This document shows positions 20,166 through 57,057 of a DNA stretch of 64,000 nucleotides, one piece after another. Where the stretch lies: positions 1-64,000 of the IMG/VR virus record IMGVR_UViG_3300043388_000012; one strand, 5' to 3'. Every line of letters starts with the position of its first letter. Position 1 is the stretch's first letter. The notes beneath the pieces are model-generated. The model saw nothing but the letters and a program-made list of their open reading frames with translations. It searched no databases and was not told the origin of the DNA. Made by a program: the position numbers and the translations under genes. Origin of the DNA: a virus. Its lineage: Duplodnaviria; Caudoviricetes.

Positions 20166-20181
20166 GAGCCAGATGCGGGAC
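20166..20181 (-). promoter_or_regulatory. Motif B operator in a leftward promoter
   Basis: GAGCCAGATGCGGGAC; TTGACA on the minus strand at 20191-20186. Confidence 0.65.
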
Positions 20182-20239
20182 ACATTGTCAAGCGCGTAAA
20201 CACGAACGGACCCGCTCGTGTTTGTGCTAGACCACCTGC

Positions 20240-20983
20240 ATGCCTCCGCGCAAACAGACCACTGACCCGAGCATCGCGATCGCTTACCTCCGCGTCTCGA
20301 GTGACGAGCAAACCGTTCGGCAGCAACGGGAGGAGATCGAGCGTTGGGCCCGCTCGCAGCGCATCACGATCGCGGAGTGGTTCTCCGATGATGGAGTGAG
20401 CGGAGCGGCGGAGCTCTCCATCGCAAAGCGGCCTGGCATGATGGGAGCCATCGCGGCTCTCAAGACACATCGAGCTGGCTTGCTCGTTGCGTGGAAGCGA
20501 GACCGGCTTGCTCGATGCGTAGCGAGCGCTGCGGCCATCGAGAAGCTCTGCAAGGAGCAAGGCTCGAAGGTCGTAACCGCGGATGGGCTCGATGCGAGTG
20601 ATACGCCAGAGGGCATGCTCGTGCGCTCCATGCTGGACGTGATTGCAGCCTACGAGCTGGAGTTGATCCGTGTACGCACGCGCATAGCGATGGCCTCGAA
20701 GAAAAAACGAGGGGAGGCGGTAGGGTCAGCACCCTACGGCTGGAAAAACTTGGGCCGCATCGAAGTGCAGGGGGGTAAGTCGGTCGGAGGTCGCTTGGAA
20801 AGGGTGCCAGAGGAACAGGCCACCATCGCGCGTATACGCCTCCTGCAGGCATCCGGACTCTCGCATAGGGGGATTGCTCTAGCGCTCACGAGAGAGGGCT
20901 ACAGGGCCCGTGGGAAGGCTTGGCATGCGACCACAGTACAGCGCGTGTTGAGTGCGCTACGCATGGCCAGAGAGGCGGCTTGA
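20240..20983 (+). CDS. Serine recombinase (catalytic domain plus short recombinase domain)
   Basis: AYLRVSSDEQ (catalytic Ser), DGVSG, RPG, WKRDRLAR, GSAPYGW. Confidence 0.92.
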   Translation: MPPRKQTTDPSIAIAYLRVSSDEQTVRQQREEIERWARSQRITIAEWFSDDGVSGAAELSIAKRPGMMGAIAALKTHRAGLLVAWKRDRLARCVASAAAIEKLCKEQGSKVVTADGLDASDTPEGMLVRSMLDVIAAYELELIRVRTRIAMASKKKRGEAVGSAPYGWKNLGRIEVQGGKSVGGRLERVPEEQATIARIRLLQASGLSHRGIALALTREGYRARGKAWHATTVQRVLSALRMAREAA

Positions 20984-21002
20984 AAGACTCGGCACGGGGC
21001 TG

Positions 21003-21020
21003 TGTATCCTCGAGGTTACA
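21003..21020. promoter_or_regulatory. Motif A site (reverse orientation)
   Basis: TGTATCCTCGAGGTTACA, 20 bp after the serine recombinase stop. Confidence 0.85.
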
Positions 21021-24000
21021 CGGCCGATTTCCCTTGCAGCACACATGTGTCATACAGGTGGGCGCGTGGGGTTTGCGTCCGCACTCTGCCTCACGTCCGG
21101 GAGGCCTTACCCCTATTCCCCCTCGAAAAATGATCGGGCAACCCAAAGGGCACCCTGGGTTTCAAAAATAAAATTTCGTATACCGCGCACAGCGGTAAGC
21201 AATGGGCGGGGGCATGGCAAGGAAGAGCAAGGCAAGGCGAGAACGGGACTTACTCGGAGTAGTGCATGAGGCGGCGGGTGAGCTCGCGAAGAGACGAGAG
21301 CATGATTTGAGGCTTGCTCTTTTGCCCGACAAGATCGTGGTGCGTGCAGACACGTTCGTCCGCACGATTTGGTTTGTGCAGTTCTCCGAGGAAGCCAACA
21401 TCCTTGCTTGGATGTACCGGAGCCCGGGGCAACCTTGGAACATCGCATGGCGCTTCAAGTACCCAGACAGAGCGGCAGAAGTGCATCGGGTTATGGTTAG
21501 TGCCGAACCGCAGGAATACGAGCTAGTCGCGGCCGAAGAGAAGCTCTCCGAGGTCTTCCAAGCTGCTTGCGATGCAGAGACACGAGCAGGGCGGTTTGCC
21601 GAGTATGACCGGCTCGATATCCAGCTGATTGGGGAGGAAGCCCTTGCTTGCATCGAGGATCAACCGTGGGCCAAGAACCCGATCATTCTGTGATTGTCCC
21701 CAAAGCGAGCAGACCTGTTTTGGTCATGCTTTTCCGCTGAGAAAAGTCTTTGGTGCGGGACACGTCCGGCTGTAGAGTTCCGCCAACTCTCGTGCACAAG
21801 GTTCTTCCCGGGACTTGTCTCTCTCTTCATCGTGCACGGGAGTTTTCCTCCCTTCCCCTCGAGGGCCCAACTGATGGACGGTCTACACAAGCTCGATGAA
21901 CTCTGCACCGAAGTGCGGGAGGTGACTGAGTCTGACTGCGTTGTCTTGATGGTGATCGTGGGCAATCACATCGGCTACTCGGCGAAGTTTTCATGTGAGC
22001 CGCATCTCCGTACGCAGACGTTGAGCGCGATCGCTTCTCAGTTGCGTCACATCGCAGGTGAAATCGAAGCAGATGCTACCCCGCGACTAGCTTGGGATCA
22101 GAGCGATGGCGTTGTCTGCCCGACGTGCGGTGAGGACTTCACGTTGTGCTCGCACGGCAACGAAATAACTTCGAGGGAACAGTCATGAATGGCGATGTGA
22201 CTTGGAAGGTTTGCGATCGATGCGTAGGCAAGCCGGATGCAGAGCATTTCGCTGAGACCCTCGAGGCATGCACTGACCCTGCGATCAAAGAGCTGGCGCA
22301 GAGCATTCCTGCGGTGACTTGTTATTTCGATACGGCAACCGCTGCAGCACGAAGCTTCCACGTCTGGATTACAGGCTATACACACCATGCTGATGGTTCT
22401 GTCACCATCCGCGCGCTCAACGACGGCAATGACGATCTCTTGCCCGGGATCGGTAGTGAGCGAGTTCCGCCGCAGAACTTAGTGCCGTGCGGCTGTGGCA
22501 AGTGGGTATCTCCAACTCAAGCGCAATGCTTGGAGTCAGGCATAGAAATGCTCGACTTCGTTAGGAGCCGCAGGAGCCGGGGGAAGGCATGACTAACAAG
22601 CCGCCGAAGATTGAAACCACGCAACAGTACTTCGTTACGAAGGGTTGCTTGCAGGGATTCAAGAACAGTTTGTTAGCACTCGATGGTCTGAACCGACCAG
22701 ACATGTGGAAGAAGCTTTATCGAGATGCGTTGCTCTCGATCATCGAAGAGCTCGCCGCCGACGTGAAGGAGTACGAAGACAGCGAGCCGCTGAACGTTCT
22801 CCCGTTCGGACCAATCGAGATCCCTCCGCATAGGCGCAACCGATGACTAAGGTCAAAGACCTTTGGAACGATGCAGAGGGCACGATCGTCTGGCGCGAAG
22901 TCTTCAAGGACGAAGAAACGGGTCAGTGGCTCATTTCCGTGAACGTAGGCGGAAGCACGATCGAGCCTCCAGCGTTCAGCATTGCTCGTGCGCTCAAGTC
23001 CTATCTTGCCGAAGACATCCGGACGGAGGCGATCGTTGCCTATCAAGCGATGGCGCGTTGCCTGCACAGGCTAGCTAACAAAGCGATGCTCGAAGCAGAG
23101 AAGCTACAACCGACTTCGGAGTTCGAGATCCCGATCGAGAAACTCTGCATCGATCTGATGAACGAAAAGGTTGCTGAGATCGCGAAGCACGGCGGCAGAG
23201 CTCTCACGATCGCCGAAGAGCGACTAGCAGCTCATCTGCGCGCGCGGGGTTGGGGGGAGAAGCTATGACCGTCCGTCAGTACACGCCCGAGGAGAAGGCC
23301 CGCTTGGTCGGTGGGCTGTCGGAGGAAGATTGGAATCGATCTTCGATCGAGTTCGAGCGCGTCGTGAGGTGGTCTTTCGAGAGATTGCCGGTCATGACGC
23401 AAGCGGCTGCGCTGCACGGTCTCCTTTGCGGCAACCAGGAGCTTCAGGATGCGCTCGACACCATCGAGCACGTTTGTAAGCAGCAGCCGGTTCCGATGCA
23501 AGCTCCGTGCCACTCGCTGAGCAAGAAGCTCATCTCCGCAGGTTGGGAAGGATGCGAGTAAAGGTCGAGCTGGGTATAAACACGATCTGCATCGAGTACT
23601 TAGGCGGGCAACGTTTCATCGAGATTCAGAGGGCTGGCGGATGACAAGCGACGACGACGATCCTGTGATGCGGCGTACTGCGACGGGCTTGCCCGGAGCC
23701 GCGTGTTTGAAGTGCGGAGCTCTGGCTCAGAACGCGGCCAACGCTCTGGGAGACAAGCTGATACATCCGTTCGCTGGCTGCTTCTCGATCTGTGTCATGT
23801 GCTTCCATCCGCAGGCGTTCACGGAGGACCTTACGAAGTTCCGTGAGCTGACTCCCGAAGAAGCCAAGTCGAAGCCACTTCAGCGAGCACTCGACGCGAT
23901 CAAGCGAGCATTCGCGACGAGGCCTAGCTAAAATGCCGCTCGTTATCCCGTTCGTCTGCGATGTGTGCGGAGCGGGTTGCGTTGCCGAACCATGCTCGGG

Positions 24001-26339: not shown

Positions 26340-26649
26340 ATGAGTCCATCAGAACTCGCCTACCAGGAAGCCACAGAAGCGATCTACGTTCGCGAGATCG
26401 ATGACGGGTGGGTCATTAGTGTTCTTCGGATGGTGTATTCCGATCGAGTGTGTATCGGTCGAATCGAAGATACCTCCACGTATGACGATGGCTGGTGTTA
26501 CCCCAACCGAGCGATGGCGCTGCGCTCCGCGCAAGCGTTGGAACGGGGTGGCAGACCCTCCCGACGGTTGGATAAAACAGGTCTCTACGGGGCGTTGTCG
26601 TGTGAATGGAGATCCGAATCGGGAATCGAAGGGATGGCCGGAGCCATGA
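26340..26649 (+). pseudogene. Small phage gene broken by a single-base frameshift (or sequencing error)
   Basis: Removing one T at 26538-26539 joins YDDGWCYPNRAMALRSAQA to WNGVADPPDGWIKQVSTGRCRVNGDP in the other frame. Confidence 0.55.
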
Positions 26650-26956
26650 GTAGCGAGCCAAACTTCATCGCTGTGTGGAGGTATGAATGATCATCGAAGT
26701 TGTCGCAGAAGACCTCCGGGAGCTAGTCATGCAGTTGGAAGGGGCGATCTTTCCTTACGAAGACGTTACGGACGCAAGGATCAACGCGTTTCGTCGTATT
26801 CGCGCGGTTCTGTTGCGAGAAGGCGTTTACCCAGAGTCGGCCTATCATCGAGCACAGATGCGTCCGTCGACCTTCGAGCAGCTACCGACTGCCGAGAAGT
26901 GGAAGATCGATCGAGCTCTCGGGCTTCTCGATTGGGATGGCACTGACGATCGATCT

Positions 26957-26995
26957 CCGGTCGAGCCGGTCGAGCCGGTCGAGCCGGTCGAGCCG
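26957..26995 (+). repeat. 9-bp tandem repeat (CCGGTCGAG)x4, encoding PVEPVEPVEPVEP
   Basis: Read directly from the sequence. Confidence 0.95.
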
Positions 26996-27926
26996 ATGAA
27001 CATCGATGCGAAGGTATCGCCGATCTTCCAAGGGGTGCATGCAGACCGGTACGAGACGAATCCTGCGGAGCTCGATGCTGCCCAGCTCTGGGAAGTCGAG
27101 AACACACAAGTAACGTCGTTAGGCCGGGAGGCAGGAACGATGCTCAACGTGTGGACTCAGTCTTTCAGCCTGCTCGGACGCTTGCTCTCTCGAGATCCCG
27201 ACCGCGGCATCAACCCGAGCCCTCGAGACTGGTTGGTTGCTTCGACGGTAGTGCAGTGGCTCGGTACTCTCCGCGGTCGCACGTTCTTGGCTCAACTTCA
27301 GGTAGCATCATCGCTGCGGCGGGAGCCGTGAGACGTTGGGAGATCGCGTTCTACGTTTTGGTGCTGGCTCTGATATTGGCCCTGCAGTTGGCACGCGAGC
27401 TCTATATCGATTCGCACGCACAGCCAGGCTGGAGCGACGAACCAGGTACGTTCGATCCGTCGAAGGTCAAGGGGGAATGATGGGCACGAAGCTCGCACGG
27501 CGATCGTTGTTTCAAGGCATCGGAGCCGTTGTCTTCGCGAAGGCGTTGGAGCGGCTCCCTGTGCTTCCCGCAAAGTGGGCATCGGACTTCGACGAGCTAG
27601 TGCGCACTTCGAGCATCGTTACGTTGGAGCCGGGCGATACGTTGCACTGGGTAAGGGATGCTGTCGGAGGTTATGCAGTCGTGATCGCAGCGGCAGCAGC
27701 GATCTACAGCGCTCCGCTCCGCGCGCGTTTGACGTAGCTCGCCGCTGACTGCGAGACTGCAGACCGCGGAGCTTGGAGCGATGCGGCATGGTATGTAGGG
27801 AGAGCCTGCATCATCCGTCGGAGATTTTCGGTAGGTCTTCAAGGTGGCACGGGGCATGAAACACTGCTCGCTTCAAGCTGCGCGTTAGCTGGCTAGGTCT
27901 CCTGATCTTCAGGCAGGCTACTGATC

Positions 27927-47089: not shown

Positions 47090-47106
47090 TGTGGGTTTGA
47101 CAGGCT

Positions 47107-47122
47107 ATCCCTAATGCGGGAC
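47107..47122 (+). promoter_or_regulatory. Motif B operator/promoter of the lipoprotein gene
   Basis: ATCCCTAATGCGGGAC; TTGACA 47097-47102. Confidence 0.7.
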
Positions 47123-47135
47123 GCTTGTCCGCATC

Positions 47136-48035
47136 ATGGCGAAGTTGGCCCTAGCTCTGTTGATCGTGTGCTCTGGTGTCGGATGCATTGGCGCGGAGCC
47201 TGACTCGATCGAGCAGGATGTAGGCGTCGGTACGTACGATCCGGAGCCGGCTCCCATACAGAGGGTCAGCAAGCCGGTCGCAGAAGCTCCCGAGCCATCG
47301 AAGCCGGTCGAGACTACCTCGCAGCCAGCCGTGCAGCCCCTACCTGCCGCGAAGCAAGCTCCGGTCAAGGCAGAGCCGGTCGCAGCTGCTCCGACCGCTG
47401 TAGAGCCTGCAGCTCAACCCGAGCAAGCCGCACAGCCTGAACCGGAGATCGCACAGGAGCCGACTCCGGCTCCCGAGATGACTCCCCCTGTCGTCGTGCC
47501 TGTTCCGGTTCAGGCTGCTCCCGAGCCAGCTCCGGTTACACCTGTCATCGTACCTGCTCCGGAAACGCCCGTCGTGCCTACTGTGTGTCAGCCGGATGTT
47601 TGCGAAGACCCGTATCACTCATGCACTCCGCCGCAAACCGGAGCGCTCGACGAAGGTCACACCGATGCAGGTTCGTGGGCTCGTACGTACACGCTCCACT
47701 CCGTGACTGACATGGATCTCATCTCGTTACCGTTCATGATGCGTAAGAGCTCGACGCTCACAGCGAAGATCGAGACTGACTTACCTCCGGGAGACGAGTA
47801 CTTCCGTTGTGCTGGCGACTCGTACGATGACGGGCATACATGCGGAGCTGGCACAGGTTGGGTCCTGCACAAGGGATGCTTGATCATCGCCTCGGAGTTC
47901 ACGGTTACCTGCCGCGTTACGCCTCCGGCTATCTCGTTCGGCATGCTTTACCTCCTGTTTCACCAGCCTCCGACCGATGGCGAGCTGAAGATCGCCAGCC
48001 GCTGCGAGTACGATGTAGCCGTCAGTTGGCACTGA
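47136..48035 (+). CDS. Predicted lipoprotein with Pro/Glu-rich stalk and Cys-rich domain
   Basis: MAKLALALLIVCSGVGC hydrophobic leader with lipobox-like Cys. Confidence 0.6.
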   Translation: MAKLALALLIVCSGVGCIGAEPDSIEQDVGVGTYDPEPAPIQRVSKPVAEAPEPSKPVETTSQPAVQPLPAAKQAPVKAEPVAAAPTAVEPAAQPEQAAQPEPEIAQEPTPAPEMTPPVVVPVPVQAAPEPAPVTPVIVPAPETPVVPTVCQPDVCEDPYHSCTPPQTGALDEGHTDAGSWARTYTLHSVTDMDLISLPFMMRKSSTLTAKIETDLPPGDEYFRCAGDSYDDGHTCGAGTGWVLHKGCLIIASEFTVTCRVTPPAISFGMLYLLFHQPPTDGELKIASRCEYDVAVSWH

Positions 48036-48061
48036 AATCTGCGAATAGCCCTTGCGCGTGA

Positions 48062-48077
48062 GTCCCGGATAGGGGAC
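48062..48077 (+). promoter_or_regulatory. Motif B operator/promoter
   Basis: GTCCCGGATAGGGGAC; TTGCGC-17 nt-GACACT. Confidence 0.78.
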
Positions 48078-48117
48078 ACTTTACTCCAGACGAGCAAACC
48101 GCTCGGAAGGAGTAGCC

Positions 48118-49110
48118 GTGAGGAAGTTGTTTTCGCAGGTCTCGGAAGACGTCAGCTGCATCGTTGGTTGGGCCATGTTTGCGTACACGCTCGGAGGCTC
48201 GAAGCTGCATCTGATGGATGCAGTGCGGCGCATCGTGGGCAAGTCCGACCGCTGAAGCGTTGGCGCTCCCGAGTCGATCATGACTCGGGTTGCGCGAGCT
48301 CTTCAGCTCGATGGAGGTCACATGCCGCTGCATACGTACGGATTCGCAAACGAGCACAGCAACCTGATTGGCTACAAGGCCGATCAATCACGTGAAAGCG
48401 CGCGCGATTGGGCGAGAGAATGGCTCGAACAGCATCCCGAAGCGACCTGCGTTGAGGTCTGGCGAGACGGCAGGGATGAAGATGGTGAGCCGTTTCCTTC
48501 GTTCGTTGTCCGTAGAGAGCCCGCGGAGGCTCAATCATGAAGCGTGATGTTCTGATGTTTTGCGGCGGTTTTGCTGTGGCGATCGCGCTGGCTAGCCAAG
48601 CCGTGCATGCTGATCCGACTCCGGCTCTCGACCGTCAGCTGATGGATGCGATTGCGCGCTCGCTCGCCGATCAAGTTCGTGCGACAGAGAAGGTTGCGAA
48701 CGCGACTGAGCGCGTTGCAAGCCAGGTCGAACGGGCAGGAGAGCGATGCAGATGACAACTCCACAGCAGCCGGCAATCACACTCGAGATGCAGCTCAAAG
48801 GGCTCGAATGGAAGCTGCACGAGGGCCAATGGCAGCCTGTCTGTGGCACGTGCAAGGGCAACTGTGGCCAGTGCGGCTTGACCGGCATCATCGGCAACGA
48901 TGTGCAGGCGAGCATGGAAGCTCTCGCGAAGAACCTAACCAGGGGCTCGTGACGATCACTCAAGCGCTGAAGCTAGCGGAGCTCGTGCGGAAGGTTGGGC
49001 CCGAGACTCCCGCGCATGAAGCTCTAGTCACGCTAGCGGCCGCATACATCGAGCTCCTGAACCCGAAGGAGCCGAAGCCGGATAAGCGGCTAATCGGACC
49101 CAAGCGCTAA
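48118..49110 (+). other. Small-gene operon behind the motif-B promoter at 48052
   Basis: 48118-48255 (AAGGAG RBS, below ORF-track cutoff), 48280-48540, 48537-48755 (signal-peptide-like), 48746-48952, 48949-49110. Confidence 0.65.
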
Positions 49111-49811
49111 GCGCACAAAACGCTAGGCGGGCGTTTGCGTCGGCGCGTCGACTCGCAGAACTCGCACATCGTTTGGCGGCCAGTGCGGCGAACGAACGGA
49201 TCGCCGCAGCGCTTGCAGTCCGGAGTCGCGATCGTGAGCTTCCCAATCCAACTAACGTCGCCTCCGTTGTTGTCTCTGAGCTTCGAGAGCGCGCTGTTCT
49301 CGATCTGTCTGACGCGCTCACGAGTGATCGACATGTACTCGCCGATCTCCTCGAGGGTCATCCCGCATGGATGCTTGCGCACAGCATCTTTCGCAGCTGT
49401 ATGGTTATCCCACTCGAGATCCGCCCATGGGTCTGGTATGTGCGCAGGGGCTCGACCTCTCCGCTTCGGCGCAATCGGCGGCGGAGGCGGTTGGCGTACT
49501 CGGAGCCGCGGTAACGTCGGCTGCGGCGAGATGAAGGCAGGCATGATCTGCCGCACTCGGAGCCGAGGAACCGCGGGAGGCGTTGGAGGTATCTGGCGAA
49601 CTCTCAGGCGAGGCGATGCGACTGAAAAGGGAATCATCGCGACCGGAGGCGGTTGACGATTCTGGAGGCCTGAGAGAGCTGCTATCGGGGTTGTTGATCG
49701 AATTCTGTACCGCACCAGGGAGTTTTGCATCTGCCCTGCATGTAGGTGGCTAGTCACCACAAAACACTGAAGGTCGAATTCGGTTTTTGACGAACTCTTG
49801 ACGTTGAGCAA
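49107..49811 (-). CDS. Stand-alone sigma70 region-4 protein with Pro/Arg repeats and C-terminal Zn finger
   Basis: MTLEEIGEYMSITRERVRQIENSALSKLR; CKRC..CEFC; no region 2 recognised. Confidence 0.85.
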   Translation of the reverse strand: MLNVKSSSKTEFDLQCFVVTSHLHAGQMQNSLVRYRIRSTTPIAALSGLQNRQPPPVAMIPFSVASPRLRVRQIPPTPPAVPRLRVRQIMPAFISPQPTLPRLRVRQPPPPPIAPKRRGRAPAHIPDPWADLEWDNHTAAKDAVRKHPCGMTLEEIGEYMSITRERVRQIENSALSKLRDNNGGDVSWIGKLTIATPDCKRCGDPFVRRTGRQTMCEFCESTRRRKRPPSVLCA

Positions 49812-49826
49812 TCACCTTGACGTGAA

Positions 49827-49842
49827 GTCCCGGATGCGGGAC
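49827..49842 (+). promoter_or_regulatory. Motif B operator (perfect arms) between the sigma-4 and Fis-like genes
   Basis: GTCCCGGATGCGGGAC; TTGACG-17 nt-GACACT. Confidence 0.85.
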
Positions 49843-49861
49843 ACTCAAGGAGTTGAAAGGG

Positions 49862-50158
49862 ATGGTCACTGTGAAGAAAATGCTGAAGTTGCGCGCGATT
49901 CAAACGCTGCACGGTAACGAGGCGGCGACTCAGGAGATTCTGCGAGCTCTCAAGCTCTCACAAGGCAACATGCGCGATGCGTGTGCGGCGTTGGGTATCG
50001 GGAAATCTTCGATGTATCGCTTGATCGAAGACCTGAACGCACAAGCTGCGATCGACAAGCTCGTTGCCTCCCTCGGCGTGAAGATTCAGGGCAAGGAGTT
50101 GTCTGCCGCCGCAGCTCCGGTCAAGGGCCCGAAGCCGCGCGTGAAGAAGGTCGCATGA
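49862..50158 (+). CDS. Fis-type HTH protein
   Basis: ILRALKLSQGNMRDACAALGIGKSSMYRLI. Confidence 0.75.
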   Translation: MVTVKKMLKLRAIQTLHGNEAATQEILRALKLSQGNMRDACAALGIGKSSMYRLIEDLNAQAAIDKLVASLGVKIQGKELSAAAAPVKGPKPRVKKVA

Positions 50159-50508
50159 TGCTCGACGTCAGCGCGTTGCTCGAAGCTGGCTATCGTCCGC
50201 ACAAGTGTGACAACCCGGTAGCTGACAACACGGTTTATCAAAAGGTGATCCGAAGCGGGGGAGAGAAGCTCTACTTCGTCAATGTCACCTTTTGGTATTT
50301 CGATAAGCACTTTCCGGATAGAGGCGCGCAGACTAGCGCGAGTTGTGAAGCCCGGCTCTACCTGCCCGAAGCTAATCCGCTTGTAGGGTCTGCAGGCTTC
50401 ACGCTCGCACTGCATCTTGAGATGACCGCGACAGTCGCTGAAATCGAGGCGTTTTACGCTACTGCGTACAAGGCGATGCAGTGCGTGCCTGACCTGCACA
50501 ACAACTAG
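50155..50508 (+). CDS. Hypothetical protein
   Basis: ATGA-coupled to the Fis-like gene; followed by a terminator. Confidence 0.65.
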   Translation: MMLDVSALLEAGYRPHKCDNPVADNTVYQKVIRSGGEKLYFVNVTFWYFDKHFPDRGAQTSASCEARLYLPEANPLVGSAGFTLALHLEMTATVAEIEAFYATAYKAMQCVPDLHNN

Positions 50509-50525
50509 AACGCGTCGAAACGAAG

Positions 50526-50557
50526 AAGCCTGCGAGCACTTGTCTCGCAGGCTTTTT
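50526..50557. terminator. Intrinsic terminator, possibly bidirectional
   Basis: AAGCCTGCGAG-CACTTGT-CTCGCAGGCTT followed by TTT, between convergent genes. Confidence 0.8.
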
Positions 50558-50794
50558 GCGTTTGGCTCAGTGCGGCCGCAAGCTCGGATCTTCGTATCCT
50601 ATCGGGGCTTCGTCAGGGAGTTGGGCATGGGTGCCCGACCTCCTTGGCGGAGTTTTAGGCGCCTCTCAGAGCCGCAAAATGCGGTTCGAGGTGCTAACCC
50701 TCGTACGCTCGGAAGCGCGTCCGCTGCAGCCTGCTAGAGCCGTCCTTCTCTGGTCGGCTAAGGCGTTCGTCACTCGCCTCCGGTGACTCCGCTC

Positions 50795-51205
50795 CTAGCC
50801 AGAGCTGGGTAAGGAGGCATTCATGCAGTCTTCGCAGAACTCCGGATGACGCATCGTTCGGCGCGCACTCCGAAGCGAGCTCTCTCCGAGAATCGTTGCG
50901 TGAGCCGAGCACACAACTGCGTAGCGGGCTCCGCAGTCGATGCCCTGCTCCGATGCCACGTAGACAACGATCCGGGAGCCTGAAGCCGCGTAGACAGCTT
51001 CTGCGATGTGCCCTGCTTCCCTGCGCGCGGGAAACCTCCGGGCAATATGCCGCTCGCAGAGGTAACGGACTTCGCCAGTGAAGCCGCACACTCGGCAGTA
51101 GCGGCCTAGATCGACACAAGCCTTCGCAGAGTGGTCGGGAGCCGCGCAGTGCTCGCAGGCATCGCACACGGCTTGCACGATCCGGAGCTCGTTACGTTTG
51201 CCCAT
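50795..51205 (-). CDS. Cassette gene, Cys-rich, predicted leaderless
   Basis: ATG 6 nt after -10 CACACT of a motif-B promoter. Confidence 0.75.
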   Translation of the reverse strand: MGKRNELRIVQAVCDACEHCAAPDHSAKACVDLGRYCRVCGFTGEVRYLCERHIARRFPARREAGHIAEAVYAASGSRIVVYVASEQGIDCGARYAVVCSAHATILGESSLRSARRTMRHPEFCEDCMNASLPSSG

Positions 51206-51214
51206 GATCAGAGT

Positions 51215-51230
51215 GTGCCGGATACGGGAC
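51215..51230 (-). promoter_or_regulatory. Motif B operator/promoter
   Basis: GTGCCGGATACGGGAC. Confidence 0.85.
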
Positions 51231-51318
51231 ACAAAAGCAAGTCGACCCGAGCCATTTTCTGACTCCAGGTCGACTTGCTTTGGGAGGCGGCATCCTACCG
51301 CCTCTGCTGCCCTGCTCT

Positions 51319-51525
51319 TCAGTGAGCGGCTAGCTCCCGATACAGCGCGTTCGTGCGCTCGCTCGCATCGGCAAAGCTCTGCAGGGTGCGAGTGCTCTTA
51401 CTCACATCGTGCCGCTCGCTTGCGGCGTGTTCCGCCTTGAGAGCGATCGCGATATCCGCGCGGATTGCGTCGGCGGAGCGCTTGGGTTGCTTCTTCGTGG
51501 TCCGGCTTTGTTTCGTCTTCGGCAT
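51319..51525 (-). CDS. Cassette gene, predicted leaderless
   Basis: ATG 6 nt after -10 TACTCT. Confidence 0.75.
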   Translation of the reverse strand: MPKTKQSRTTKKQPKRSADAIRADIAIALKAEHAASERHDVSKSTRTLQSFADASERTNALYRELAAH

Positions 51526-51534
51526 GTGTTTAGA

Positions 51535-51550
51535 GTACCGGATGCGGGAC
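51535..51550 (-). promoter_or_regulatory. Motif B operator/promoter
   Basis: GTACCGGATGCGGGAC. Confidence 0.85.
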
Positions 51551-51590
51551 AGAATGCAAACCGACTCACGTCGATTTTGGCGCCAGTATC

Positions 51591-51833
51591 CTACACCCCT
51601 AGTTCGCGGCGAGCAGCTGCGATGGCGAGCTCCGCCGCTTCTTGCGTAGTGAAGTAGGCGATGTTCGAACCCCCGTCGACGTTCCGCACTGGCCAGCCGA
51701 GGATATCCGCCATCATCGCGACTGCGATGCGCGGGAAAGCAGCCTTCAAGCCGCGGTTCTTCGCGTAGTCTGCCGCATACGTCAGCACGGCTTGTGCCGC
51801 TGTCTTGTCGGCGGCGGTTGTCTTCTTGGCCAT
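51591..51833 (-). CDS. Cassette gene, predicted leaderless
   Basis: ATG 6 nt after -10 CACACT; MAKKTTAADK... Confidence 0.75.
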   Translation of the reverse strand: MAKKTTAADKTAAQAVLTYAADYAKNRGLKAAFPRIAVAMMADILGWPVRNVDGGSNIAYFTTQEAAELAIAAARRELGV

Positions 51834-51842
51834 GATCAGAGT

Positions 51843-51858
51843 GTGCCGGATGCGGGAC
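51843..51858 (-). promoter_or_regulatory. Motif B operator/promoter
   Basis: GTGCCGGATGCGGGAC. Confidence 0.85.
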
Positions 51859-51909
51859 AGATATGCAATCCGATTGGAGGCGGCAAAGATGCCGCCTCCG
51901 GGGGAGCTC

Positions 51910-52215
51910 TCAGACTGCGAAGGCGGCCGCAATGACAGGAGCGCACAGCCGGGCATATTCATCGCGCGCAGCGCTCCGGTTGCCTACCAAAACACCGTTC
52001 ACTTCGATTTGATCCCAAGCGCGGACATCGTTTGAGTCATACGAGGCGACTTTCATCGACACACATACTTCGATGCCGTTCGGGATCGAGAGGCAGAATG
52101 CTTTGATGTGCGTGTTCGCCATGATCTCGCCGCAGTGGTAGGCGAAGGTCGAGAGCACGTGCTCTTGAATCTGTTGTTTTGAGGTAGTAGCAACTTTGGG
52201 GGACTTCTTGCTCAT
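51910..52215 (-). CDS. Cassette gene, predicted leaderless
   Basis: ATG 6 nt after -10 CACCAT. Confidence 0.75.
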   Translation of the reverse strand: MSKKSPKVATTSKQQIQEHVLSTFAYHCGEIMANTHIKAFCLSIPNGIEVCVSMKVASYDSNDVRAWDQIEVNGVLVGNRSAARDEYARLCAPVIAAAFAV

Positions 52216-52224
52216 GTCTTTATG

Positions 52225-52240
52225 GTGCCGGATGCGGGAC
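52225..52240 (-). promoter_or_regulatory. Motif B operator/promoter
   Basis: GTGCCGGATGCGGGAC. Confidence 0.85.
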
Positions 52241-52290
52241 AGATACGCAAGCTGATTTGAGGCGGCAGGAAGCCGCCTCCGGGGAGAGCT

Positions 52291-52599
52291 TCAGCGCGGC
52301 TTGAGCGCCATATGCGGTTCGACAACGTAGTCGAAGCACTCGGATGCTTTGCCGATGATGCGCCCAACCTGTTTCCAGGACTTGGCTTGACGCACATTGC
52401 AGTCACGGTCGATGAACGCGCGCACGCCGTTCTTAGGGCAGGAGATGCGGGCATACTTGGGCCCGATAGTCGCCTCGAAGTCGCGATAGAGCGGGACCTT
52501 GCCATCACACTCGATGAGCTTGACGCGTACATTGCAGGCTTCGATGAAGGCTGCGACGAAGCCCGAGAAACTGTCAGCGGCTGAGTTGCTGTTGTCCAT
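52291..52599 (-). CDS. Cassette gene, predicted leaderless
   Basis: ATG 6 nt after -10 TACTGT; GPKYARI...VRAFID...AKSWKQ. Confidence 0.75.
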   Translation of the reverse strand: MDNSNSAADSFSGFVAAFIEACNVRVKLIECDGKVPLYRDFEATIGPKYARISCPKNGVRAFIDRDCNVRQAKSWKQVGRIIGKASECFDYVVEPHMALKPR

Positions 52600-52608
52600 G
52601 TCTAAACA

Positions 52609-52624
52609 GTACCGGATGCGGGAC
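52609..52624 (-). promoter_or_regulatory. Motif B operator/promoter
   Basis: GTACCGGATGCGGGAC. Confidence 0.85.
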
Positions 52625-52690
52625 AGATAAGCTAGGCGGTTCGAGACGATTTTGGAGGCGGCGTCCTACACACACGCCTCCGGGGGAGCT

Positions 52691-52939
52691 TCAGTGCGTG
52701 AAGCCTTCCCAGCTGCAAGCCGGTTTGCTGGCGTCCTTCCGGAAGCCAATGGCTCCGAGTTGCTCACACTGAATCCAGCCGGAGAGGGAGAGGTTTTGCC
52801 GCAAGCCGCAGCCACATTTTGGGCAAACACCAGAGGCAACGACTGCTCGCGTCTCCGCTTGTTGGGCTGCGATCCGAGCATCGCTCGCAGCGCGCTCCGC
52901 CTTGCGTGCCGATCGTTCCGTTTTGCTCATGCGTGCCAT
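52691..52939 (-). CDS. Cassette gene with Zn ribbon, leadered
   Basis: GGAG RBS before ATG 52939; CPKCG..C..C. Confidence 0.7.
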   Translation of the reverse strand: MARMSKTERSARKAERAASDARIAAQQAETRAVVASGVCPKCGCGLRQNLSLSGWIQCEQLGAIGFRKDASKPACSWEGFTH

Positions 52940-52981
52940 GCGTTTACTCCGAGGTGCGTTGCGTTGCTGACAGTTGATAGA

Positions 52982-52997
52982 GTTCCGGATACGGGAC
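52982..52997 (-). promoter_or_regulatory. Motif B operator/promoter
   Basis: GTTCCGGATACGGGAC. Confidence 0.85.
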
Positions 52998-53013
52998 AGA
53001 TACGCAAGCCGAT

Positions 53014-53160
53014 TCAGGTCGACTTTTTGGCGGCGCATTGCGCGCGGTTGATCTGCTCCCAAAGTGCTTCGAGAGCGAGCGTCAGAGCTTTGGCTTCGTC
53101 CGTATCTCCCATGCGGGAGAGCTTGGCTTCGATGATGTGAACCGCGGTGATTTTTTCCAT
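53014..53160 (-). CDS. 48 aa cassette gene absent from the ORF track, predicted leaderless
   Basis: MEKITAVHIIEAKLSRMGDTDEAKALTLALEALWEQINRAQCAAKKST; ATG 6 nt after -10 TACTGT. Confidence 0.7.
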   Translation of the reverse strand: MEKITAVHIIEAKLSRMGDTDEAKALTLALEALWEQINRAQCAAKKST

Positions 53161-53169
53161 GTCCAAACA

Positions 53170-53185
53170 GTACCGGATGCGGGAC
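53170..53185 (-). promoter_or_regulatory. Motif B operator/promoter
   Basis: GTACCGGATGCGGGAC. Confidence 0.85.
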
Positions 53186-53239
53186 AGATAAGCAAGCCGA
53201 GTTCAAGGGGGAGATACCCTCCCCCTTGGTAGGCAAGTC

Positions 53240-53542
53240 TTAGAACTTACCGACGTTGCGGCGGATTTCCGCAACGATGGTGATTTGGATGCCGCATGCG
53301 GCGGCCCATTCGAGCCAGCCTTCGCGCAAGCGCTCGATCGCGTACTCCTCGGACTTGTGTCCGTTGATGCAGTCAACCGCGGCAGGTCGACCGCGGCCTT
53401 TGATCGTTTCCGCCCATTTTACGAGCGAGACCGAGTCTTTCGACCCTTTGATCGAGATGCCGACAATGGAGTTGCCCGGAGTGAAGAAAGACGTGCCAGT
53501 GATGATTTGGAGTTGCGCGATGCTGTTGTTGTTCGTGGTCAT
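53240..53542 (-). CDS. Cassette gene, leadered
   Basis: GGAG RBS; MTTNNNSIAQ...; downstream hairpin CAAGGGGGAG..CTCCCCCTTG (53204-53228). Confidence 0.7.
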   Translation of the reverse strand: MTTNNNSIAQLQIITGTSFFTPGNSIVGISIKGSKDSVSLVKWAETIKGRGRPAAVDCINGHKSEEYAIERLREGWLEWAAACGIQITIVAEIRRNVGKF

Positions 53543-53582
53543 GTTGTTCGGCTCCGGGTTGTTGCGTTGACTTGGTAAACGT

Positions 53583-53598
53583 GGCCCGCATCCGGGAC
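53583..53598 (-). promoter_or_regulatory. Motif B operator, leftward promoter at the divergence centre
   Basis: GGCCCGCATCCGGGAC. Confidence 0.82.
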
Positions 53599-53662
53599 AG
53601 ATGCAAACCGAATCGAGCCGATTTTGCGGGCGATGTAGGCAAGCCGATTTCGGGTTGCACGT

Positions 53663-53678
53663 GTCCCGCATCCGGGAT
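53663..53678 (+). promoter_or_regulatory. Motif B operator, rightward promoter at the divergence centre
   Basis: GTCCCGCATCCGGGAT. Confidence 0.85.
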
Positions 53679-53689
53679 AGGTTAGACGT

Positions 53690-54145
53690 ATGGACAACGG
53701 CAACGACAAACCAACGATTCAGAGCTTCGGCGTGCTGGCTGGCGCGTACCTGAACCACGCGAAAGACACTGCGTTTCTCACGCATGCGTGCGAGGTCGAC
53801 TCGAACGGCTATCCGGTCAAGGTCCTCTGCAACCGAGTGAAGGCAGAGCACATCTGTCCGGATGGCTACTCGGACGAAGAGTTAGCGGGCCCTGCTACCT
53901 GCCCTGCCTGTGCGAAGAAGGACCCTCGGCATCTCACACGAGAGCGCAAGGAGGCGTTGATCTGGCGACATACGTCGAAGGATTACCGCGGAGTCGTTGG
54001 CGGCGCGAAGACGATCCTTGTGCTCCGGTTGGGCGGAACTACGCTCGTACCGCTCTCCGGTCTCACGGATGCGGAGCTAGCGAGCGAGCTCAAGAGCGCG
54101 CAGCACGCCGAAGCCAAGCGGCTGGCGAAGAAGACGGCGAAGTGA
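53690..54145 (+). CDS. Cassette gene, predicted leaderless
   Basis: TTGCAC-17 nt-TAGGTT-6 nt-ATG. Confidence 0.78.
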   Translation: MDNGNDKPTIQSFGVLAGAYLNHAKDTAFLTHACEVDSNGYPVKVLCNRVKAEHICPDGYSDEELAGPATCPACAKKDPRHLTRERKEALIWRHTSKDYRGVVGGAKTILVLRLGGTTLVPLSGLTDAELASELKSAQHAEAKRLAKKTAK

Positions 54146-54372
54146 TGGATGCGATCACATGGACGCTACAGGCAGGTACTCCGCACTACGCGTCTAGCTG
54201 CGGCCGCTACGTTGCTCTGTATGTGCGCACGAGCCGGACAGGCTTCGCGATCTACCGAGTGTTCCGGGCAAGCCTGCCGTATGCACAGCGGAAAGAACGC
54301 AACGCGCTCTCGGTCGGCGGCTTGCCAGCTCTCGCCTATTGGGAGCGCAAGGAGCTCCCAGAAGGAATGTAA
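54145..54372 (+). CDS. Hypothetical gene coupled to 53690-54145
   Basis: TGATG overlap; its stop TAA lies inside motif A at 54368. Confidence 0.6.
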   Translation: MDAITWTLQAGTPHYASSCGRYVALYVRTSRTGFAIYRVFRASLPYAQRKERNALSVGGLPALAYWERKELPEGM

Positions 54373-54385
54373 CCTCGAGGATACA
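54368..54385. promoter_or_regulatory. Motif A site
   Basis: TGTAACCTCGAGGATACA, overlaps the stop at 54372. Confidence 0.85.
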
Positions 54386-54437
54386 CGGAGGCGTGTAGGA
54401 TGCCGCCTCCAAAATCGGTGCGAGTCGAGTTGCATCC

Positions 54438-54453
54438 ATCCCGCATCCGGGAC
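54438..54453 (+). promoter_or_regulatory. Motif B operator/promoter
   Basis: ATCCCGCATCCGGGAC. Confidence 0.85.
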
Positions 54454-54492
54454 ACATTGAGATTGTCAGCAGCAACCGAAGGACGAACGAAG

Positions 54493-54726
54493 ATGACCGC
54501 GAACACTTGGTACACGATGAGCTTCCGCGATGGTGTGGTCGTCTACTTCCTCCCGAACGGCGAGATTCAAAAGAACAGCAAGCGAGTTGGCTTGCTCGTG
54601 ACAGTCGATACCACGCGACCGCGCGCCAAGCCGAGCTCCAAGAAGTCCGCTGTTCATCCTCTCGAGTTCAGCGGCTGGAAGGTCGCAGAGATTGTGCCTG
54701 CCGCCGTCGCACTTCTCGGGATGTGA
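54493..54726 (+). CDS. Cassette gene, leadered
   Basis: GAAGGA RBS downstream of the motif-B promoter at 54430. Confidence 0.7.
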   Translation: MTANTWYTMSFRDGVVVYFLPNGEIQKNSKRVGLLVTVDTTRPRAKPSSKKSAVHPLEFSGWKVAEIVPAAVALLGM

Positions 54727-54837
54727 GCAACACCTACACGGGAAATCGGATCGGGACGGAGCGTATGACACCTAACCTCGAAGCTCGTGCGGTTGCGGAG
54801 GCTTGCGAGCAATCGGTCTAGACCGGCTTGCACATCT

Positions 54838-54853
54838 GTCCCGCATCCGGCAC
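54838..54853 (+). promoter_or_regulatory. Motif B operator/promoter
   Basis: GTCCCGCATCCGGCAC. Confidence 0.85.
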
Positions 54854-54862
54854 AGTAACGGT

Positions 54863-55105
54863 ATGAACACGGCAACGAAAACGGCTCTCCAGACCAACGC
54901 AACGCGGATCGCGACCTGGATGGCGGCCGCCGACGAGGATGGCGATGGCTCGCCGATTCAAGGGATGGCTGCGAAAGTCTCCGAGCTGGCGCAAACCCTG
55001 CTCGCGATTCGCGATACCGCATGGTCGCGCACTCTCCTGACAGTGCTCCCGATGCACCTGCGAGACCGCGTGATCGCGGCAGGCCGCCAGCTGAAAGCAG
55101 CCTAG
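54863..55105 (+). CDS. Cassette gene, predicted leaderless
   Basis: TTGCAC-17 nt-CACAGT-6 nt-ATG. Confidence 0.75.
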   Translation: MNTATKTALQTNATRIATWMAAADEDGDGSPIQGMAAKVSELAQTLLAIRDTAWSRTLLTVLPMHLRDRVIAAGRQLKAA

Positions 55106-55227
55106 GGGGAAGGAGCTAGGGAGCCTCGAACGGGCTCCCGGAGGCACTACGGAGCCGGAATAGCCCGGCTCCCGAGCTCTGGAGCTGAAGCGGATCGGAT
55201 CGGCCCCGATCGATGGTAGGATAGGGT

Positions 55228-55437
55228 ATGCGAACAAAGTCAAAAGTGAGTGCGAAACAGCAAGCAGCTCGGGAGCTTCTTGCGGCAGAGCTTCCGCCTG
55301 TGTCGGACAAAATCATGCTCCGTGAGTTTCTGCGGCTGAAGGGGCTAACACGCGACGATCTCGCTACGTCTGACGTCGATGACTTGCAGCGCCTACAAGC
55401 CTACTTTCAGGCAGTTGAGCGGATTTTCCACGTGTAG
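55228..55437 (+). CDS. Small gene without a motif-B operator
   Basis: TAGGAT 5 nt before ATG. Confidence 0.55.
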   Translation: MRTKSKVSAKQQAARELLAAELPPVSDKIMLREFLRLKGLTRDDLATSDVDDLQRLQAYFQAVERIFHV

Positions 55438-55477
55438 GCATCGAGCGCTAAAAATCGGAGCCGATCGTGTTGCATGT

Positions 55478-55493
55478 CTCCCGTATCCGGGAC
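55478..55493 (+). promoter_or_regulatory. Motif B operator/promoter
   Basis: CTCCCGTATCCGGGAC. Confidence 0.85.
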
Positions 55494-55504
55494 ACAATCT
55501 CTCT

Positions 55505-55834
55505 ATGGCAACCGAACACACCGTAGCACTGACGATTCTCGCGCAACTCGGCAACCGCTGCATGCAGATGATCGGCGCGAAGAACATCCTGACCTCCGAG
55601 AACGCGCTCACCTTCAAGATTGGGCGCAACGCTAAGAGCGTGTCGCACATCCGCATCTCCCTTGATGCTGATGACACCTACACGATCGAAGCTCTCCGAG
55701 TGCGGAAGCAGAACGGTGTGCCGAAGTGCACGACGGTCGAGATTAGCTCGTGTGTGTACGTTGACCGGATGCACAAGACGATCGAGCGCTTCACGGGCAT
55801 GTATACGAGCCTCGGCACGATGGGCGCGAAGTAG
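55505..55834 (+). CDS. Cassette gene, predicted leaderless
   Basis: TTGCAT-17 nt-CACAAT-6 nt-ATG. Confidence 0.78.
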   Translation: MATEHTVALTILAQLGNRCMQMIGAKNILTSENALTFKIGRNAKSVSHIRISLDADDTYTIEALRVRKQNGVPKCTTVEISSCVYVDRMHKTIERFTGMYTSLGTMGAK

Positions 55835-55846
55835 GCGGTTGCCGAA

Positions 55847-55870
55847 GCGGGAGGTATATATACCTCCCGC
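55847..55870. repeat. Perfect 24-bp palindrome GCGGGAGGTATATATACCTCCCGC
   Basis: Read directly; core AGGTATATATACCT recurs at 55890-55903. Confidence 0.95.
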
Positions 55871-55934
55871 ACATCGGCGTTTCACCTACAGGTATATATA
55901 CCTCTCCCGGAACTTCAGAGATCGGCTTGCGTGT

Positions 55935-55950
55935 GTACCGGATGCGGGAC
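55935..55950 (+). promoter_or_regulatory. Motif B operator/promoter
   Basis: GTACCGGATGCGGGAC. Confidence 0.85.
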
Positions 55951-55961
55951 ACAATCTGATC

Positions 55962-56333
55962 ATGAGCAACGCGGTCAAGTTCCTCGGTACCTCGGATGAA
56001 GTCACAACCTGTGACTGCTGCGGCAAGGCGAATCTCAAGAGCACGGTCGCTCTGTCCATCGATGAAGCCGAGCCTGTGCATTTCGGCGTTACCTGTGCGG
56101 CGCGCGCGTTGAAGACTGGCGTAAACGAGGTCAAGCGCGGCACTGCTGCAGCCGACCGGGAGCGCGCAGAAGCGGAGCGCAAAGCACGCGCCGAAGCGGA
56201 GCGAGTTGCTTCGGCTCCTTGGTACGCCTTCCTTGCGGCTCACGGCATGGGCGACAACAACTTCAGCCGCATCGAGTCACTTGGCGGCTACAAGGCGGCG
56301 CGCGCGCGGTTCGAGGCGGAGCAGGGCAAGTAG
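55962..56333 (+). CDS. Cassette gene with Zn finger, predicted leaderless
   Basis: TTGCGT-17 nt-CACAAT-6 nt-ATG; CDCCG..HFGVTCA. Confidence 0.78.
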   Translation: MSNAVKFLGTSDEVTTCDCCGKANLKSTVALSIDEAEPVHFGVTCAARALKTGVNEVKRGTAAADRERAEAERKARAEAERVASAPWYAFLAAHGMGDNNFSRIESLGGYKAARARFEAEQGK

Positions 56334-56372
56334 GATACCGGCTCCAGAATCGGATCGGGGCGGCTTGCGATA

Positions 56373-56388
56373 GTCCCGCATCCGGGAC
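56373..56388 (+). promoter_or_regulatory. Motif B operator/promoter (perfect arms)
   Basis: GTCCCGCATCCGGGAC. Confidence 0.87.
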
Positions 56389-56399
56389 ACTATGACTGC

Positions 56400-56648
56400 A
56401 TGGACACAGCAAACACGGCGGAACGGTTGGCGGCGAAACTGACTCAGGAACTGAATCGGATCGTGGGCGACCGGGGCAAGGTTATCCACGTTGTCACCGA
56501 AGGTCTCGGGCATGGCTGGTGTGTGGTCTTCGACACGGAACATGCCGCGCTCAAGGCGTACCACACCTACAGGTACTCGAAGGGTATTACCTTCGGCGAG
56601 TCGAAGAACCTGAACGGCTGGTATATCTCGACTGAACCCACGGTGTAG
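56400..56648 (+). CDS. Cassette gene, predicted leaderless
   Basis: TTGCGA-17 nt-CACTAT-6 nt-ATG. Confidence 0.78.
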   Translation: MDTANTAERLAAKLTQELNRIVGDRGKVIHVVTEGLGHGWCVVFDTEHAALKAYHTYRYSKGITFGESKNLNGWYISTEPTV

Positions 56649-56676
56649 GCACAATCGGATCGGGGCCCTTGCATGG

Positions 56677-56692
56677 GTCCCGCATCCGGGAC
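56677..56692 (+). promoter_or_regulatory. Motif B operator/promoter (perfect arms)
   Basis: GTCCCGCATCCGGGAC. Confidence 0.87.
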
Positions 56693-56703
56693 ACAATCTA
56701 TTC

Positions 56704-56973
56704 ATGCAATCGAATCAAGCAACGCAGACGAAGACGAAGAAGCCGAGCAAAACTGCCATGAAGTTCCTCGGCCTTGCCGCCAAGGTCAACAGCTGGTCGC
56801 ACAAGCTCGAAGGTACGCACATCGCCAACATGAAAGATTGGTGGATTGAGCTTGAAGCCGCGGGTTACTGCGAGATCACGCACACGGTAGGTGCGATGTG
56901 GTGCAAGATTACGCCTGCCGGTCGCATCGCACTCGACGCGCACATCGCATCGGGCGGTAAGGTAGCGCGCTGA
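56704..56973 (+). CDS. Cassette gene, winged-helix-like, predicted leaderless
   Basis: TTGCAT-17 nt-CACAAT-6 nt-ATG; WIELEAAGYC...WCKITPAGRIAL. Confidence 0.75.
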   Translation: MQSNQATQTKTKKPSKTAMKFLGLAAKVNSWSHKLEGTHIANMKDWWIELEAAGYCEITHTVGAMWCKITPAGRIALDAHIASGGKVAR

Positions 56974-57041
56974 AATCCTAAGGGATGACGGGGGGAGCAG
57001 GACGGCTCCCCCAGAATCGGCATTGCTCGGCTTGCATATCT

Positions 57042-57057
57042 GTCCCCCATGCGGGAT
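57042..57057 (+). promoter_or_regulatory. Motif B operator/promoter
   Basis: GTCCCCCATGCGGGAT. Confidence 0.8.

Follow-up and report, generated by a model that had tools for sequence, protein, structure and literature searches.

The window analysed here covers the first 64 kb of a linear IMG/VR contig of 82,209 bp (IMGVR_UViG_3300043388_000012, hereafter G000). Between positions 47107 and 57057, it carries 19 predicted promoters in which a 16-bp palindrome with the consensus GTCCCG-N4-CGGGAC is embedded. The units behind these promoters are single small genes or pairs of genes, with functions that have no assignment. Eight promoters point leftward (51215–53583, minus strand) and 11 point rightward. 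Eight leftward and eight rightward units diverge from a point at about 53.6 kb, and three more plus-strand units lie at 47–50 kb. One of these three contains the gene of HTH98 (49862–50158, plus strand), a protein of 98 amino acids (aa) with a putative Fis/NtrC-type helix-turn-helix (HTH), which is the candidate repressor discussed below. Scans of the cassette proteins against Pfam and PHROG returned only DUF6011 and two PHROG families of unknown function.

The search for the palindrome with at most two mismatches gave 20 matches, compared with 4.3 ± 2.1 in shuffled sequences, and none of 100 shuffles reached 20. A position weight matrix (PWM) was built from the sites themselves and applied to the entire 82-kb contig. 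The PWM placed 19 strong sites (16.9–26 bits) inside 47107–57057, and the rest of the contig formed a tail at or below 15 bits. All 19 strong sites were intergenic according to a self-trained gene model. The first-pass annotation had listed 20 operators. The whole-contig scan retained 19 of them, separated from the tail, and reduced the copy at 20166 to a half-site with a single good arm. This doubtful half-site (20166–20181, minus strand) is located in the divergent intergenic region between 19364–20041 (minus) and 20240–20983 (plus). Its PWM score of 15.0 equals that of two intragenic chance-level sites (37041 and 75651), and it has TTGACA 4 nucleotides (nt) upstream on the minus strand, without a hexamer carrying A2/T6 at 17 nt. 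A further site at 33723, absent from the first-pass list, is intragenic and probably due to chance. The exact 16-mer gave only single chance-level matches across IMG/VR, except in one relative.

For the analysis of promoter anatomy, each site was oriented along its downstream gene. A −35 hexamer of the form T(T/A)GNNN precedes the palindrome at 19 of the 19 sites, mostly as TTGCAT, TTGCGT or TTGCAC. The gap between this hexamer and the palindrome is 4 nt at 11 sites, 2 nt at seven sites and 3 nt at one site, which reproduces the two registers described in the first-pass annotation and adds one intermediate case. The −10 hexamer, with A at its second and T at its sixth base (nAnnnT), lies 17 nt past the −35 at 18 sites and 16 nt past it at 51535. 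The palindrome covers most of the 17-nt spacer and extends over one or three bases at the start of the −10. In this text, "sigma-70 type" denotes the pattern TTG..., 17 nt, nAnnnT, which is usual in bacteria with many leaderless mRNAs, e.g., Actinomycetota and Deinococcota. The promoters had earlier been described as sigma70-type with a TTG(A/C)NN −35 and a −10 about 17 nt away; the spacing was confirmed, but the −35 is TTGCRT-like and agrees with the sigma70 consensus at three of six bases. A scan with the E. coli-type promoter consensus misses these promoters, and a scan with a terminator consensus gave counts at the shuffle level.

In 13 units, the ATG is located exactly 6 nt past the −10 and 9 or 11 nt past the palindrome, without a Shine-Dalgarno sequence. 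From this arrangement, the mRNAs of these 13 units are predicted to be leaderless. Five of the six other units have leaders of 19–42 nt with GGAG-type sites, and in the sixth (47107) the ATG lies 13 nt past the palindrome without a GGAG-type site. The central 4 nt of the palindrome lack symmetry, and their orientation relative to the promoter is reversed at 48062, 49827, 53583 and 55935; they are divergent at 47107 and symmetric at 57042. The palindrome thus slides by 2 nt and flips while the distances between −35, −10 and ATG are fixed, which marks it as a separate module and not as a part of polymerase recognition. Its dyad symmetry suits a dimer.

The distal arm of the palindrome supports this view of two overlapping elements. 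In registers 3 and 4, the −10 begins with position 14 of the palindrome (G14). G14 is changed to C, T or A at eight of the 12 sites in registers 3/4, and G is present at all seven sites in register 2 (Fisher p = 0.013). The earlier claim that the distal arm changes where it overlaps the −10 therefore holds. Arm decay only where the arm must also serve as the −10 is expected from two competing constraints.

The three plus-strand units at 47–50 kb include the weakest and one of the best putative operators. The operator at 47107–47122 (plus) is the weakest of the 19, with two mismatches; it has a −35 of TTGACA, a gap of 4 nt and a −10 of GACGCT at 17 nt, and is followed by the gene 47136–48035 (plus), which encodes a 299-aa protein with a signal-peptide-like N-terminus. 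The operator at 48062–48077 (plus, gap 4) precedes the operon 48118–49110, with a −10 of GACACT and a 40-nt leader with a Shine-Dalgarno sequence. The operator at 49827–49842 (plus) has the perfect consensus and is located between divergent regulators, before the HTH98 gene (−35 TTGACG, gap 4, AAGGAG, ATG at 49862). TTGACG also occurs three times at 49790–49826, directly 5′ of this operator, with distances of 11 and 19 nt between the starts.

The leftward units are all on the minus strand. Six of their operators stand before predicted leaderless genes: 51215–51230 (gap 4, ATG 9 nt past the palindrome) before 50795–51205 (136 aa), 51535–51550 (gap 3, 16-nt spacer, −10 TACTCT) before 51319–51525 (68 aa), 51843–51858 (gap 4, with a 10-bp GC hairpin upstream) before 51591–51833 (80 aa), 52225–52240 (gap 4) before 51910–52215 (101 aa), 52609–52624 (gap 4, −10 TACTGT) before 52291–52599 (102 aa), and 53170–53185 (gap 4) before 53014–53160 (48 aa). 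The other two have leaders with GGAG. These are 52982–52997 (gap 4, 42-nt leader) before the gene 52691–52939 (82 aa), and 53583–53598 (gap 2, 40-nt leader) before the gene 53240–53542 (100 aa), which is the innermost leftward unit.

The eight rightward units beyond the divergence point are on the plus strand. The innermost operator (53663–53678, gap 2, −10 TAGGTT, ATG 11 nt past the palindrome) precedes the predicted leaderless gene 53690–54145, which is followed by 54145–54372. The operator at 54438–54453 (gap 2) precedes the gene 54493–54726 (77 aa) with a 39-nt leader and a Shine-Dalgarno sequence. All of the remaining rightward genes are predicted to be leaderless: 54863–55105 (80 aa) behind 54838–54853 (gap 4), 55505–55834 (109 aa) behind 55478–55493 (gap 2, −10 CACAAT), 55962–56333 (123 aa) behind the flipped operator at 55935–55950 (gap 2), 56400–56648 (82 aa) and 56704–56973 (89 aa) behind perfect operators at 56373–56388 and 56677–56692 (both gap 2), and 57067–57492 (141 aa, DUF6011) behind 57042–57057 (gap 4).

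Further elements were observed around these promoters. An AATCG(G) element lies approximately 10–12 nt 5′ of the −35, and it is also found in G001–G003 and G006, the relatives described below, regardless of the operator type. In many cases a TGTAGGAT motif and a GC hairpin that lacks a U tract stand before this element; the hairpin is present 5′ of AATCG(G) in about half of the units. A GCAAC pentamer occurs at approximately +4 to +16 in 10–11 of the 19 units, with or without a leader (p = 7 × 10−7).

The contig has a GC content of approximately 0.59 and a CheckV completeness of 75%, and the virus of the window is an uncultured phage with a genome of about 110 kb. Most of its approximately 150 genes have no family assignment. 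Among its products are a family-B DNA polymerase, RecA-like and SbcC-like proteins, a tyrosine integrase-like protein (38253–39560, minus strand) and a portal protein (58698–60665). A DNA search against cultured phages found nothing near-identical, and their closest portal was 34% identical. A portal search retrieved three related contigs, namely G001 (a 73-kb fragment), G002 (109.5 kb) and G003 (110.3 kb), with portals 64–67% identical to that of the window. Both G002 and G003 have direct terminal repeats. A metagenome scan with HTH98 added one partial contig and nothing more.

Palindrome copies with at most three mismatches numbered 11 in G001, eight in G002 and nine in G003, and the reversed-pattern controls gave 0, 5 and 2, respectively. 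Several of the copies in G001–G003 are in the same promoter position, with a leaderless ATG 9 nt past the palindrome. The more distant relative G006 has no 16-bp palindrome; instead, 10 copies of a different 20-bp palindrome lie within 5.3 kb beside its pair of genes for HTH98 and for its sigma-like neighbour. The 20-bp palindromes of G006 abut −35-like hexamers and overlap TACnnT hexamers. The distant relative G007 has a third palindrome type, also of 20 bp. G002 and G003 further carry a second promoter family (G002, L036 680–3840; G003, L035 2720–3530), in which the −35 lies between the arms of an inverted repeat of the TTGAAATCG ... CGGATTCAA type; TACAGT comes next, and the ATG 6 nt after it. 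The "TTGAAATCG...ATTCAA" module of G002 and G003 is absent from the contig studied here. The G002 orthologue of the gene 52691–52939 is located behind a different palindrome. In G002, orthologues of two window cassettes use the second promoter family, one of them inverted relative to the other, which shows that operators and cassettes are exchanged between phages.

Five HTH proteins are encoded in the window, and HTH98 is the most likely of them to bind the palindrome, although this assignment is no better than probable. The HTH98 sequence matched Pfam HTH_8 with an E-value of 1 × 10−3. A profile search of the PDB with HTH98 gave the DNA-binding domains of ZraR, NtrC and NtrC4 as weak matches (E = 0.02–0.6). 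The neighbours of HTH98 in a protein atlas are HTH_8 clusters, one of them a NinH cluster, and PF02954 is precomputed for eight of 15 HTH98 homologues. These signals for the HTH_8 assignment are weak but concordant. The closest homologues are 94%, 85% and 77% identical. The recognition helix GKSSMYRLI is invariant in the four genomes with the palindrome and in 15 metagenomic homologues, whereas G006 and G007 have other versions of it. Seven contigs have an operator-like copy of the matching type immediately 5′ of the HTH98 gene, and in several of them this copy is degenerate. HTH98 is preferred because its helix tracks the operator type, because it has its own upstream copy, and because the other HTH proteins fit worse.

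The divergent partner of HTH98 (49107–49733, minus strand) combines an HTH like region 4.2 of sigma-70 (Sigma70_r4, E = 1.4 × 10−11) with a Cys4 zinc ribbon. Its best matches among solved structures are regions 4.2 of primary sigma factors. This sigma-r4-like protein is the best conserved of the binder candidates (69–71% identity), and its helix TRERVRQIE is identical in all genomes compared, whatever their palindrome. It was rejected as the first-choice binder on account of this invariance across operator types. The pair of sigma-r4-like and HTH98 genes and an XRE gene are all present in G001–G003 and all absent from two palindrome-free relatives; the synteny of the pair is kept in five relatives, including the more distant G006 and G007. 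The XRE-family HTH gene of the window (46739–47089, plus strand; HTH_3 and PHROG regulator matches) ends 18 nt before the first operator. The XRE helices of G000 and G002 differ from those of G001 and G003 although all four share the palindrome, which makes the XRE protein a less likely binder. The relatives with the palindrome lack HTH94, and the complete genome G002 lacks HTH81, so both fit less well.

The sigma-r4-like protein has further features of its own. Its N-terminal part contains 3–4 RxRVR repeats and a KRRGRAP stretch, followed by a near-exact copy of the −35-reading helix of sigma-70 region 4.2, the Cys4 ribbon and a basic tail. The family has approximately 35 members, all from metagenomes or viral contigs. 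The protein could be a −35 competitor or a polymerase-docking protein. A P(R/K)xRV(K/R) peptide is common to this N-terminal part and the C-terminus of HTH98; most HTH98 homologues keep it C-terminally and end in VA, VAA or AAA. The shared peptide may serve as a common docking site or mark the proteins for degradation.

We propose, with a probability of roughly 0.6, that a dimeric repressor encoded by the phage uses the 16-bp palindrome as its operator and occludes approximately 19 promoters. The promoter anatomy, its conservation in relatives and the covariation of helix and operator can be read directly from the genomes compared; from them we infer binding and repression, that the binder is a dimer, and which sigma factor is used. 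The promoters would be of the host primary-sigma type (TTGCRT, 17 nt, nAnnnT). An HTH98 dimer may bind at about −27 to −10 and block the contacts of sigma factor and polymerase with the spacer and the −10. The palindrome fills most of the spacer and overlaps the −10, so a bound protein would exclude RNA polymerase. HTH98 would also repress its own gene through the perfect operator at 49827, and the consensus operator in the HTH98 promoter would create a negative feedback loop.

Several observations weigh against this proposal. The −35 hexamers match TTGACA at only three of six bases. The score of HTH98 against PF02954 is 19.2 bits, below the cut-off of 22 bits. The structure model of HTH98 is mediocre, with a predicted local distance difference test (pLDDT) value of 66, and Foldseek on this model gave no significant match, with NtrC4/NtrC1 domains in the top rows. 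The copy 5′ of the HTH98 gene is degenerate in G001, G002 and G003. The sites in G002 are few, eight compared with five in the reversed-pattern control. The G002 orthologues of two window cassettes use the other palindrome, and one is inverted relative to the other. The covariation comprises three operator types only, the two divergent ones come from distant phages that differ throughout, and an undetected DNA-binding protein could give an equal pattern.

It is rather unlikely that the palindromes are repressor operators with another binder, which could be the sigma-r4-like or the XRE protein, a host regulator, or a phage protein that escaped detection. In favour of this reading, the perfect operator 49827 has the sigma-r4-like gene as its divergent neighbour, this gene encodes the best-conserved candidate, the XRE gene ends close to the first site, and the majority of the approximately 150 genes lack a family. 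However, the TRERVRQIE helix does not change with the palindrome type and is the −35-reading helix of primary sigma factors, and the XRE helix changes between G000/G002 and G001/G003 despite their common palindrome. For a host factor, the operator type would track the phage HTH protein merely by coincidence. It is quite improbable that the palindrome is instead a positive element, i.e., an activator site or a specificity element for a polymerase that the phage redirects, perhaps by means of the sigma-r4-like protein. The presence of a sigma region-4.2 look-alike beside the array and the weak agreement of the −35 hexamers with TTGACA would suit such a role. Activation is nevertheless unlikely because the spacer already has the optimal 17 nt (18 sites; 16 nt at one) and not the 19–20 nt of MerR-type spacer activators, and because the palindrome has no fixed register: with respect to the −35, −10 and start, both two registers and both orientations are found. 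Its centre near −18 to −20 is also the position expected for occlusion.

A further reading gives the palindromes a role in recombination. They would then be crossover or binding sites of a serine recombinase that, with a Fis-like accessory protein, shuffles or inverts cassettes, and spacer exchange would in every case rebuild a promoter. A small serine recombinase of 247 aa (20240–20983, plus strand; resolvase domain and a fragment of the "Recombinase" domain) is encoded 74 nt beyond the half-site, and serine invertases such as Hin and Gin use Fis. Genes of the resolvase family were found in G000–G003 and not in G006 or G007, and the order and orientation of the cassettes differ between G000 and G002. 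The sites and the recombinase gene have no consistent adjacency in relatives, though, and a 16-bp site with a symmetric AT centre contrasts with the 26-bp hix/gix sites with their asymmetric core. Recombination also leaves the strict promoter placement and the arm decay that follows the needs of the −10 unexplained, and we regard it as very improbable. Hardly credible is a function as RNA hairpins, i.e., terminators or processing sites of read-through transcripts. As RNA, the site would form a 6-bp stem with a tetraloop (−8.7 kcal/mol), but the palindrome lies upstream of the predicted start sites and no U tract follows it. Its variants break pairs without compensation (e.g., position 14), the sequence and not only the pairing is conserved, and separate GC hairpins are already present further 5′ in about half of the units.

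If HTH98 is the repressor, it may serve lysogeny maintenance, lytic early shut-off, or both, and we give lysogeny and shut-off about equal odds. Genes of the tyrosine integrase family occur in five of six genomes (G000–G003 and G006), which favours lysogeny. Against or neutral to lysogeny are the facts that these integrases are not all orthologous, that no prophage relatives were found in 185,579 GTDB species genomes searched with the portal and HTH98, that the complete genomes have terminal repeats, and that the regulated genes resemble an early host-takeover array. The HTH98 gene sits behind a consensus operator inside the early region, and a Cro-like early shut-off would fit this placement at least as well as lysogeny.

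Control by one repressor with many operators is already established. The C1 repressor of phage P1 has 22 asymmetric operators (PMC8546580). As proposed here, one phage repressor serves about 20 operators over many separate promoters, and its own gene is under operator control. The P1 operators, however, are asymmetric 17-mers distributed over the genome, and C1 is not an HTH_8 protein; the array of the window consists of dyad-symmetric 16-mers within 10 kb of one-gene units, most of them predicted to be leaderless. The repressor of L5 and the other Cluster A phages has more than 20 operators and stoperators per genome (PMC9283540, PMC6550527). It resembles the present system in the number of sites, and repressor and site co-evolve into immunity types. 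Its sites are asymmetric 13-mers, bound by a monomer and dependent on orientation, and they lie mostly within transcription units, where they halt elongation. The sites of the window are dyad-symmetric, lie in promoter spacers and also occur flipped, and they are therefore not of the stoperator kind.

The phage SPbeta protein MrpR binds SPBRE elements at about 10 promoters (PMC10516654). Here, too, the promoter regions of a large temperate phage, about 10 of them, share a repeated element that was predicted in silico long before its binder was found. MrpR differs in having a tyrosine-recombinase fold, and SPBRE is a 15-bp motif that controls operons of the ordinary kind. A precedent for a small phage protein that has a Fis-type HTH and forms a homodimer is the Fis mimic NinH of lambda (PMC7166090). 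NinH bends DNA as an accessory protein; it is not known to be the master regulator of a set of promoters, and its sequence similarity to HTH98 is weak.

Arrays of small genes are also familiar from virulent phages. The terminal-repeat module of SPO1 and the early promoters of T4 comprise many small genes without assigned function, each with its own strong host-type promoter, near a genome end of a phage with terminal repeats. No SPO1- or T4-type early array is known to have a single palindromic operator embedded in every promoter. The conserved inverted repeats of Streptomyces phage phiC31 are likely a further analogue; our literature search retrieved no paper on them. In the first-pass annotation, one repressor was thought to silence about 20 separate promoters as a highly distributed lysogeny control. 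The placement in the spacers and the covarying phage HTH protein support the single repressor, and P1, L5 and SPbeta take away the novelty of distributed control. What appears to be new is the placement of a dyad-symmetric operator in each promoter of a tightly packed series of one-gene units, together with predicted leaderless transcripts, a candidate repressor of the HTH_8 type and three natural pairs of operator and helix.

If the proposal is correct, the locus brings together 19 natural promoters in a small space, all under one small repressor and graded in their −35, −10 and operator sequences. With its two registers and mostly leaderless units, the array would form a series for studies of promoter occlusion and leaderless expression, and the three natural operator/helix pairs would provide a route to specificity swaps. 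Approximately 20 genes without assigned function would stand out as early genes regulated together in a phage lineage that is still unstudied, and such sets are the usual place of host-takeover and anti-defence functions. A broader scheme is speculative and rather unlikely. In a family of phages of about 110 kb with terminal repeats, control would have two parts that have not been described before: a Fis-type autorepressor with swappable specificity would gate a pulse of about 20 self-contained leaderless early genes, and, in concert with it, a separate protein that copies sigma region 4.2 and has a zinc ribbon and RxRVR repeats would act on the same −35 hexamers or on the host polymerase. The promoter–operator modules would be swapped and inverted between phages.

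A second repeated element was noted in the contig. This motif A is an 18-bp near-palindrome of the type TGTAACCTCGAGGATACA, with 10 copies at operon boundaries (3275, 12591, 16401, 21003, 29052, 45317, 54368, 57759 and 63323 in the window, and 81180 in the contig). G002 has 15 copies as a perfect palindrome, and none were found in G001, G003, G006 or G007. The distribution of motif A is the same as that of the orthologous integrase-like gene 38253–39560 and of the XRE helix of the G000/G002 type.

The portal match in G002 is approximately 950 nt longer than in the other relatives. A 924-aa protein of the window (28951–31725, plus strand) contains a LAGLIDADG/homing-endonuclease segment at about residues 365–439, which suggests an intein. 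The gene 26687–27331 holds four tandem copies of a 9-nt unit at 26957–26993.

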